Origin: a virus
Taxonomy: Duplodnaviria > Heunggongvirae > Uroviricota > Caudoviricetes
Strand: one strand, 5' to 3'
DNA: 40,443 nt
IMG/VR virus record: IMGVR_UViG_2778261635_000003
Part shown: positions 7,655 to 8,345 of the stretch, piece after piece
How the letters are laid out: each line of letters opens with the position of its first letter
Position numbering within the stretch: position 1 is the stretch's first letter
The notes under the pieces: generated by a model
Told to the model about the DNA's origin: nothing
Databases searched by the model: none
What the model saw: the letters and a program-made list of their open reading frames with translations, nothing else
Made by a program: the position numbers and the translations under genes

Positions 7655-8054
7655 AATTATCTCCATTTTTACAAATGAATTTTGTCGATGCGGTGCCTGG
7701 TGCCTCCAGGTGACGTTAACCAGTTAACAATTAACGCCGGATAATCCACCCATAACACTGATGCTTTTAACTGTGCCGCGTGCGCTTAGCCGCATTCACC
7801 GCATCACAAAATTCACTTTAAAAAGGGGCGGCAGGGCAGCCACGGAGTAGAACTGATGCCGCTAAAGACTACACACAGCAATGTCGTTATTTACAACCGG
7901 AGGCGCACTCCCACCATTTAAATTTAACAGACAAGACCGACTCTTTATGAATACCGGAAATGCGCCTTCGTGTTGTGCCCGGTTTTATTTCACCACCTCC
8001 GGGCTTTGGTGGTATCTTTACTGAAGTTCTCACACAACCAGTAAGGAAATGAAT

Positions 8055-8345
8055 ATGCCAACGTATCTCGCCAGAGTAGAACTATATAATGCTGAGCCAG
8101 AGGATTACGAAGGGCTTCATAAATATATGCTCTCACTAGGATTCAGGAGAACGATCCCCCATGGAGATGGTTCGTATAATCAACTCCCGGACGGAACTTA
8201 TGTTTCCGAAAAGGGCGGTGATATTTATCAAATTCGCAGCCAGATATCTGACTATGCAGACCGACTATCCAGGTATCGCGCGTCTGTTTTTGTTTGCGAA
8301 TTCAGTCAATGCGCATGGTATTTATACCCCGCCAAGACCCGGTGA
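8055..8345 (+). CDS. Hypothetical protein in the sieB-equivalent accessory slot
   Basis: 96 aa, RBS AAGGA 6 nt upstream; opposite orientation to the early operon; preceded by ~400 bp of non-coding structured sequence; 3' end overlaps the convergent ydaG-like gene. Confidence 0.5.
   Translation: MPTYLARVELYNAEPEDYEGLHKYMLSLGFRRTIPHGDGSYNQLPDGTYVSEKGGDIYQIRSQISDYADRLSRYRASVFVCEFSQCAWYLYPAKTR

Follow-up and report, generated by a model that had tools for sequence, protein, structure and literature searches.

In the Rac prophage of Escherichia coli K-12, the genes kilR, kilS, sieB, ydaF, ydaG and racR follow one another in this order, and sieB is the only one of them that lies on the plus strand. 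SieB is a membrane protein, and the K-12 Rac copy comprises 162 amino acids (aa). The e14 prophage of K-12 contains the gene ymfI in the order repressor, ymfJ, ymfI, ymfH, xis and int. Morons of lambdoid phages, which were reportedly defined by Hendrix and Juhala, are discrete units of promoter, gene and terminator that are present or absent between genes adjacent in related phages. Here, we describe a locus that touches on all three systems, a plus-strand gene for a 96-aa protein (MPTYLARVEL...; 8055-8345). It is located in a stretch of 40,443 nucleotides (nt) from a virus of the Caudoviricetes (IMG/VR record IMGVR_UViG_2778261635_000003; hereafter referred to as the window), which represents a Rac-type lambdoid prophage with ydaS/ydaT-like genes reading rightward on the plus strand. 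According to the initial annotation of the window, the gene occupies the sieB slot and opposes the early-left operon, which the comparison with K-12 bears out. The locus can be regarded as the sieB slot because K-12 Rac homology is present on both sides of the cargo (7400-8016 with 89.6% identity and 8543-8686 with 84% identity), which places it between kilR and the ydaF-type gene. Like sieB of Rac, lambda and P22, the 96-aa gene occupies this slot, with the same orientation as in Rac and between the same homologous flanks. Unlike the 162-aa SieB, its product is short, contains no hydrophobic segment by eye and looks soluble, and the two proteins share no sequence similarity. Indeed, neither Pfam nor NCBIfam nor PHROG gave a match to SieB for the 96-aa protein, and the K-12 sieB coding DNA did not align with the window. 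These results agree with the first description of the product as a soluble-looking protein that is unrelated to SieB and has no characterised function.

The locus is best explained overall as a compact moron of about 390 base pairs (bp; roughly 7977-8380), in which a YmfI-family gene of 96 aa, preceded by a portable promoter/leader of short length and followed by a hairpin terminator, lies antisense in the early-left operon. We consider this explanation probable as a whole, and the anatomy of the cassette and its family assignment, taken together, very likely. On the plus strand, a promoter-like element can be read from the sequence at 7989-8018, consisting of a putative -35 region TTCACC (7989-7994), an 18-nt spacer and a -10 region TATCTT (8013-8018), which is extended by a preceding TGg (TGg-TATCTT, 8010-8018). 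The extended -10 region is kept, in the form TGGTAT(A/G)CT, upstream of e14 ymfI, of the Salmonella homologues and of an unrelated 59-aa cargo. The shared element reads TTCACC...TGGTAT(A/G)CTGGAGTTCTCACACA.CCAG.AAGGA, which can also be written as TTCACC..GGTGGTAT(A/G)CTGGAGTTCTCACACA.CCAG.AAGGA, and the -10 region is followed by an inverted repeat and loop of the form ...ACTG AAGTTCTCACACAAC CAGT AAGGA. Altogether, this promoter/leader of about 70 nt (7977-8047 on the plus strand of the window, 5430-5497 in locus L022 and 1790-1862 in locus L024) precedes three different cargos, namely e14 ymfI, the 96-aa gene and the 59-aa gene, and it is better conserved than the proteins encoded behind it. 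The inverted repeat itself (TCTTTACTG / CAGTAAGGA with the conserved loop AGTTCTCACACA; 8015-8047, plus strand) extends over parts of the -10 element as well as of the Shine-Dalgarno sequence and folds at -11 kcal/mol (z -1.8). Its outer stem pair covaries between loci, with ACTGG..CCAGT in some and GCTGG..CCAGC in others (A..T vs G..C). If the -10 region has been assigned correctly, a plus-strand transcript would not include the left arm of the repeat. The repeat could serve as a DNA operator, as an RNA hairpin of the plus strand or as an RNA hairpin of the minus strand. At the other end, 12 nt past the stop codon of the 96-aa gene, a terminator-like hairpin of 10 bp begins, which is followed by UCUUCGCU and marks the 3' edge of the cassette (8357-8379, plus strand; -22 kcal/mol, z -4.06). 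The Salmonella cassettes end in an analogous hairpin with a better tail (UUUUCUC). Since the minus-strand version of the hairpin lacks a U-tract, we infer that early-left (pL-type) transcription should read through it towards DicF and kilR.

The cassette is present or absent between homologous backbones, and its boundaries are sharp. Homology to the Salmonella cassettes covers 7977/8021-8370, homology to K-12 Rac ends at 8016 and resumes at 8543, and a common Rac-like variant with the unrelated 59-aa cargo (WP_001502430.1) shares 7400-8047 and resumes at 8438. The slot has thus been found with three alternative contents, sieB in K-12 Rac, the 59-aa gene and the YmfI type, which is the comparison of slot content that had been called for at the outset. 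Any match to 7400-8600 of the window was found in 4658 E. coli genomes. The junction between platform and cargo falls approximately at the start codon for the ymfI type and the 59-aa gene and at the -10 element for sieB. The promoter/leader looks like a portable platform with interchangeable cargos. Moreover, the conserved extended -10 region and the hairpin, both read from the sequence alone, would provide the cassette with a promoter and a terminator of its own. Like the morons of lambdoid phages, the cassette appears to be a discrete promoter-gene-terminator unit. It separates genes that adjoin each other directly in related phages, and its orientation is independent of that of the host operon. 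It differs from them in that the promoter/leader is itself a shared platform.

Several lines of evidence indicate that the 96-aa open reading frame (ORF) is a real gene. A Shine-Dalgarno sequence, AAGGA, is present at 8043-8047, 7 nt 5' of the ATG. The in-frame ATG at 8049 was rejected as the start codon, as it is too near to the Shine-Dalgarno sequence and out of frame in the homologue at locus L008. Full-length homologues of the protein with 57-88% identity were found in Salmonella, Citrobacter and metagenomes. The pairwise ratio of nonsynonymous to synonymous substitution rates (dN/dS) among the homologues is 0.09-0.32, which establishes that the ORF is protein-coding and under purifying selection. 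In E. coli the gene is rare, being present in 19 of 5426 complete genomes; in all of them it is at least 99.4% identical and the frame is intact. Candidate lysogens for this prophage are E. coli S163-2 (NZ_CP058709) and O55:H7 DEC5A (NZ_CP038394). Shortened relatives have also been observed. The copies in Shigella flexneri SFBU1023 (L014) and E. coli ECMA0423 (L015) and the proteins P0004 and P0009 either lack the N-terminus (residues 12-96 are left, with 96% identity) or contain a frameshift, which suggests decay in some cryptic prophages.

The initial annotation could not assign the protein to any family and proposed a search with profile hidden Markov models (HMMs). This search yielded a family. 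PHROG 8894 is matched over the full length (E 3.5e-38; protein residues 1-94 to model positions 1-93 of 94), and the NCBIfam model NF051477, 'YmfI family phage protein', is matched collinearly (E 4.1e-14; residues 3-90 to model positions 3-88 of 89). The latter score of 52.9 bits is below the equivalog cutoff of 140 bits, meaning that the protein is a homologue and not an equivalog of YmfI. The closest homologues, from Salmonella, carry the NCBI name 'DUF2622 domain-containing protein'. At default thresholds, Pfam gave no useful match for the 96-aa protein, and sequence searches of the PDB were equally unproductive, whether the query was this protein alone or the profile of the family. A search of 1.84 billion representative proteins with the family profile (E<=1e-3, clustering at 50% identity) revealed 938 clusters of single-domain proteins, nearly all of which are 92-100 aa long, and all of the 109 relatives sampled matched both NF051477 and phrog_8894. 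In the family, R7 and Y18 are invariant and L21, H22, M25, P45, Y49 and L90 are nearly invariant. A search of genome contigs with a narrow family alignment returned four loci. Family members with 40-60% identity were also observed in metagenome-assembled genomes of Acidobacteriota (L016 and L017), and the family thus reaches well beyond the Proteobacteria.

Of the described genes, ymfI of e14 is comparable in several respects. Its product is collinear with the 96-aa protein over the full length, it is preceded by nearly the same promoter/leader sequence, and it lies antisense in the early-left operon, one or two genes downstream of the repressor, where it is convergent with and overlaps a ymfJ-type gene. 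We took this e14-type context (antisense orientation, convergent ymfJ-type gene, proximity to the repressor) as a criterion of our own, outside the NCBI model, and the 96-aa gene shows all three features. However, the two proteins share only 26% identity (BLASTP against K-12 YmfI, E 1e-9, residues 1-93), and the HMM score is that of a homologue, as stated above. Judged by these scores, the 96-aa gene is a divergent paralogous lineage, called 'DUF2622' in Salmonella, rather than YmfI itself. A time course of the SOS response showed that ymfJ is upregulated by about 4-5 log2 units and ymfI only by 1-2 and late (PMC11002266). Since the rise of ymfI is small and late, these data are consistent with a location of ymfI outside the derepressed operon. 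No functional study was found in the literature on ymfI, DUF2622, GhoS-like proteins and e14 genes. The 96-aa gene is a new, divergent member of this known and uncharacterised phage family, and it occupies the sieB hotspot in the manner of a moron.

The cassette has also left a trace in the gene on its right. This convergent gene (8322-8534, minus strand) encodes 70 aa with a YmfJ-like N-terminus (81% identity to e14 YmfJ over 42 aa) and overlaps the 96-aa ORF by 24 nt. The ORF had been described as ending convergently inside a ydaG-like gene; the convergent overlap was confirmed, and the neighbour is YmfJ-like and not ydaG. The tail of its product is encoded by the antisense of the 3' end of the cassette. 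In near-identical genomes (L001, L002, L003 and the 19 carriers), the NCBI annotation pipeline PGAP labels the neighbour 'incomplete, missing C-terminus' and a pseudogene, because the cassette replaced its 3' end. The genes that are convergent with the cassette in the window and in loci L005, L008, L009, L012 and L013 have unrelated bodies and a common C-terminal tail, EGRSGSSxGLGPV. This tail was rejected as a functional peptide, as it is the antisense of a YmfI-type C-terminus and of the left terminator arm. It looks like a by-product of the insertion of the cassette.

The genomic contexts of the family are varied. For instance, the family gene is located between the immunity region and kil/kilR in Salmonella and other prophages, between N and cIII/kil in lambda/P22-like contigs, which is the classical sieB position; in Citrobacter it is flanked by the Q region on one side and the holin gene on the other. 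In Pseudomonas phage Cruim01 it is found downstream of the C2 repressor gene. Genes for RusA, a methylase or a terminase lie close to it in Burkholderia phages and in a metagenomic contig of unassigned origin. In all inspected contexts of temperate phages except that of Ralstonia phage Dina, the family member is a lone gene that is antisense to both flanking operons. In phage Dina, the family gene shares its strand with the genes upstream of it and converges on the downstream operon. Across the inspected family loci no constant partner gene was found, and a dedicated toxin partner was rejected for lack of a constant neighbour. Because the genes are lone and antisense and have no constant partner, the layout is that of a moron that would be expressed from the prophage. 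According to this explanation, the 96-aa gene would be transcribed in the lysogen from its own extended -10 promoter while the early-left promoter is repressed, and after induction it would probably be silenced by convergent early-left transcription. The product would be a small cytoplasmic protein with the secondary structure β-α-β-β-α-β. Its targets would most likely be specific RNAs that are bound or cleaved in trans, in a manner resembling the distantly related GhoS/Cas2 fold. The lysogen or the prophage would benefit, for example, from interference with superinfecting phages or from restraint of toxic early transcripts.

An RNA target is proposed by analogy with GhoS and Cas2. Structure prediction, which had been suggested for the protein from the beginning, was performed with AlphaFold2 and gave a model with a predicted local distance difference test score (pLDDT) of 76.9 and the order β-α-β-β-α-β. 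The fold is predicted to be ferredoxin-like, resembling GhoS and Cas2. Foldseek searches of the PDB and of viral predicted structures (BFVD) returned only generic ferredoxin-like matches with E>0.001. DUF2622, the name of the Salmonella homologues, is presumably the former name of the Pfam family GhoS (PF11080). PF11080 was matched by 36 of the 109 relatives at E<=0.01 (best E 2.4e-8), and two close homologues reached 12.3 and 16.1 bits compared with a gathering score of 21. An hhalign comparison of the family with genuine E. coli GhoS was collinear, the helix-1 pattern L..M....F was matched, and the near-invariant H22 was placed opposite R28 of GhoS. Judged from the alternation of residues along the predicted strands, the invariant R7 in β1 and the near-invariant Y49 in β3 may point to the open face of the sheet. 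In RRM-like and Cas2-like proteins, this face is the site of nucleic-acid contact. GhoS (YjdK; PDB 2LLZ), the endoribonuclease antitoxin of a type V system, is like the 96-aa protein a single-domain β-α-β-β-α-β protein of about 95 aa. Unlike the 96-aa gene, which is phage-borne, lone and antisense, ghoS lies in a chromosomal two-gene operon with ghoT. Taken together, the link of the YmfI family to GhoS is weak, and an RNA-directed activity of the 96-aa protein, suggested by analogy, is a tentative and rather doubtful proposal. It would be a decidedly bolder claim, and one that we consider unlikely, that YmfI/DUF2622 proteins, whose genes often lie exactly in the sieB slot, represent a hitherto unnoticed group of phage-encoded proteins that target RNA in the manner of GhoS and Cas2, are expressed from the prophage, are switched off by convergent early-left transcription at induction, and abort superinfection or keep kil, dicB and holin transcripts in check. 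If this were true, the cassette would be a single-gene 'type V-like' module that is swapped between prophages via a shared promoter/leader platform.

A number of observations weigh against the proposed explanation, either as regards the cassette or as regards the activity of its product. PGAP does not annotate the 96-aa ORF in any of the 19 E. coli genomes carrying it, and frameshifted or truncated E. coli copies of the gene occur (the above-mentioned P0004, P0009, L014 and L015). A simple consensus promoter scan did not call the proposed promoter of the cassette, and the U-tract of the terminator hairpin on the plus strand is weak to modest. A scan of the 96-aa protein with PADLOC gave no matches. 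With respect to GhoS, the 96-aa protein had no match to PF11080 even at E<=10 and none to GhoS by BLASTP, 2LLZ was not recovered in the sequence search with the profile of the family, and hhalign gave a probability of only about 15% for genuine E. coli GhoS. Moreover, sequences of the true GhoS type do not extend beyond those of E. coli and the like. The residue R28 has been reported to be the key catalytic residue of GhoS (PMC4010927). In the low-confidence hhalign alignment, the residue opposite R28 is the near-invariant H22, a histidine and not an arginine. Finally, a ghoT-like gene was not found; the products of the plus-strand ORFs downstream (8294-8419, 8428-8538 and 8539-8703) are non-hydrophobic by eye, and these ORFs lie antisense within real genes.

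The alternative that fares best is that of an exclusion or defence factor acting by protein binding. In this case, the protein would be made in the lysogen and would block superinfecting phages or modulate a host protein, with the ferredoxin fold being merely a scaffold devoid of RNase activity. The slot and the orientation are the same as those of sieB in K-12 Rac, the lambda/P22-like contigs place the family gene between N and cIII/kil, the moron-like antisense layout recurs in all inspected contexts except that of Ralstonia phage Dina, and the weakness of the GhoS link also speaks in its favour. However, the absence of PADLOC matches, the lack of resemblance to SieB and to all other known exclusion proteins and the missing conserved partner gene do not favour it, and the argument rests on position and orientation. 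We therefore regard this alternative as rather unlikely, and a role of the 96-aa gene in exclusion or defence, by whatever activity, as possible yet doubtful.

It is also conceivable that the protein is a type V-like antitoxin, i.e. a GhoS-type RNase that destroys mRNA leaking in the lysogen from kilR, dicB, a holin gene or another toxic gene of the prophage. Such a gene is indeed found on the left in many loci, being kilR in the window, L010 and L011 and dicB, the lambda Kil gene or the Citrobacter holin gene elsewhere, and the family touches Pfam GhoS as described above. But the partner is not constant. The e14 gene lies beside ymfH, xis and int, and the family genes of the Burkholderia and Ralstonia phages lie beside genes for RusA or terminase or hypothetical genes. 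Moreover, a small ghoT-like membrane ORF is missing downstream on the plus strand, and K-12 Rac and other kilR-bearing prophages hold sieB or the 59-aa gene in the slot instead, which makes an antitoxin improbable. Even less credit can be given to the idea that the protein does not matter, either because the ORF is a decaying remnant in a cryptic prophage or because only its transcription counts, as an antisense roadblock against leaky early-left read-through into DicF and kilR. The silence of PGAP in all 19 carriers, the damaged copies and the rarity in E. coli would fit this idea. On the other hand, strong purifying selection across genera, a reading frame that has stayed intact in the 19 genomes at no less than 99.4% identity and the large conserved family with invariant R7 and Y18 speak against it, and it is very improbable.

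The last alternative concerns the DNA upstream of the gene. The non-coding gap between kilR and the ORF comprises exactly 400 nt (7655-8054) and contains the GTTAAC-CAG-TTAAC motif (GTTAACCAGTTAAC; 7715-7728). It folds better than shuffled sequences on both strands, with -111 kcal/mol and z -2.6 on the plus strand (7667-8054) and with -133 kcal/mol and z -3.6 on the more stable minus strand. The gap of about 400 bp with several hairpins and the repeat had been noticed correctly; its interpretation as a long structured, RNA-level regulatory leader of the 96-aa gene did not hold. The segment from 7655 to about 8016 is approximately 90% identical to the kilR-sieB intergenic region of K-12 Rac, from which the 96-aa gene is absent. 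At loci of the gene outside a Rac backbone, i.e. in Salmonella, Citrobacter, e14 and metagenomic prophages, similarity begins only 35-78 nt upstream of the ATG; for the Salmonella, e14 and Citrobacter loci, the first homologous positions of the window are 7977-8043. The structured region is therefore not conserved together with the gene and is shared instead with K-12 Rac. A cis-regulatory leader, to which the folding of the plus strand and the lack of a strong consensus promoter near the ORF in the simple scan could point, is thus largely refuted by comparison and extremely improbable, as the Rac identity, the short extent of shared upstream sequence and the more stable minus-strand RNAs described in the following account for the region. 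By the same comparison, the 400-nt 'leader' is to be assigned to the backbone and to RNAs of the minus strand and not to the 96-aa gene.

Two RNA elements are predicted on the minus strand of the gap. The first is a DicF-type small RNA (sRNA) at 7822-7914, whose terminator hairpin (7828-7843) was also picked up by a terminator scan. Rfam RF00039 matches at 7826-7877 with 53.8 bits, above the gathering score of 48, and all 52 model positions (1-52) are covered. According to an alignment with the K-12 kilS region, the 5' end of KilS corresponds to position 7914 of the window. The 5' part of the sRNA and its flanks match K-12 KilS, and the stem-loop is of the DicF type here and of the KilS type in K-12. 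KilS, an sRNA that associates with Hfq, has been verified by northern blotting and is possibly transcribed from a promoter of its own (PMC8175672). An extended -10 sequence, TGtTAAATT, is located just upstream of the KilS-equivalent 5' end in the window. The arrangement suggests that the DicF-type sRNA could be expressed independently of pL and divergently from the promoter of the cassette, at a distance of about 90 nt. Like DicF and KilS of the Qin and Rac prophages, the sRNA is encoded upstream of a gene for a cell-division inhibitor; it has the terminator hairpin and loop of DicF and is the positional homologue of KilS. It differs from K-12 DicF in its 5' part and from K-12 KilS in its stem-loop. 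In a Salmonella locus (L012, about 227-290), a hairpin with a U-tract is present on the opposite strand upstream of the cassette. This hairpin resembles the DicF/KilS terminator with a different loop and has no Rfam match at the gathering threshold; possibly, it represents a third variant of the sRNA encoded here. The second element is a structured 5' untranslated region (UTR) of kilR at 7647-7836, which is STnc100-like and contains the GTTAAC-CAG-TTAAC hairpin. Its RF02076 score of 44.3 bits (E 7e-8) is just under the gathering score of 47, and the region upstream of kilR is about 95% identical to its K-12 Rac counterpart.

The remaining genes around the slot are of the Rac type and lie on the minus strand. 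To the left of the cassette in the early-left operon, kilR (7433-7654) encodes an FtsZ inhibitor (NCBIfam NF008465, E 6.6e-48, ORF residues 5-77; PHROG 294, Kil), and its start was placed at 7654 because the match to the FtsZ-inhibitor model begins at residue 5. It is followed by ydaE (7263-7439), an ORF in the position of racC (6943-7236) and recE (3668-6814). On the right, the first early-left gene after the repressor is a DUF1391 gene (8527-8745; ydaF/ydfA-like; Pfam PF07151, E 1e-28), and a helix-turn-helix repressor is encoded at 8989-9408. The order of the early-left operon is therefore repressor, DUF1391 gene, ymfJ-like gene, cassette, DicF-type sRNA and kilR. A strong minus-strand terminator (8940-8958) is located 3' of the repressor gene, and a Trp_leader match at 8933-9019 was rejected as being merely this terminator. 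Between the terminator and the DUF1391 gene, repeated ACAC..GTGT motifs (approximately 8860-8915) were observed, which resemble operators of the oL type.

Further RNAs were detected elsewhere in the window. At its left end, the sRNA pair SraC/RyeA and SdsR/RyeB is present at 463-607 (179 and 118 bits), and the prophage therefore adjoins the ryeA/sdsR locus. RalA, the antitoxin sRNA of the RalR toxin, is encoded at 2169-2347 on the plus strand (219.6 bits) and is a further feature of the Rac type. Also on the plus strand (14653-14802 and 16975-17173), the sok antitoxin RNA (above the Rfam threshold, 103.9 bits), which implies a hok/sok-type locus, is followed by a cluster of isrK, C4 antisense RNA and a1b1, i.e. 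immunity RNAs of the P1/P7 type, which are above the Rfam threshold as well.

The locus illustrates an annotation gap, as PGAP has overlooked a gene under clear purifying selection in each of the 19 complete E. coli genomes in which it was found. It also illustrates how a strand can be misread. The hairpin-rich DNA beside the ORF was taken for its leader, and the opposite strand encodes what appear to be a DicF-type sRNA of the kind that regulates cell division and the 5' UTR of kilR. More generally, genes of the YmfI type are widespread and, in nearly every context that was inspected, occupy positions like those of genes for lysogenic conversion or exclusion, and the function of a single member could serve to annotate hundreds of prophage genes. 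Moreover, the promoter/leader of about 70 nt that is shared in front of unrelated cargos suggests a route by which lambdoid prophages may swap genes expressed in the lysogen at this hotspot.

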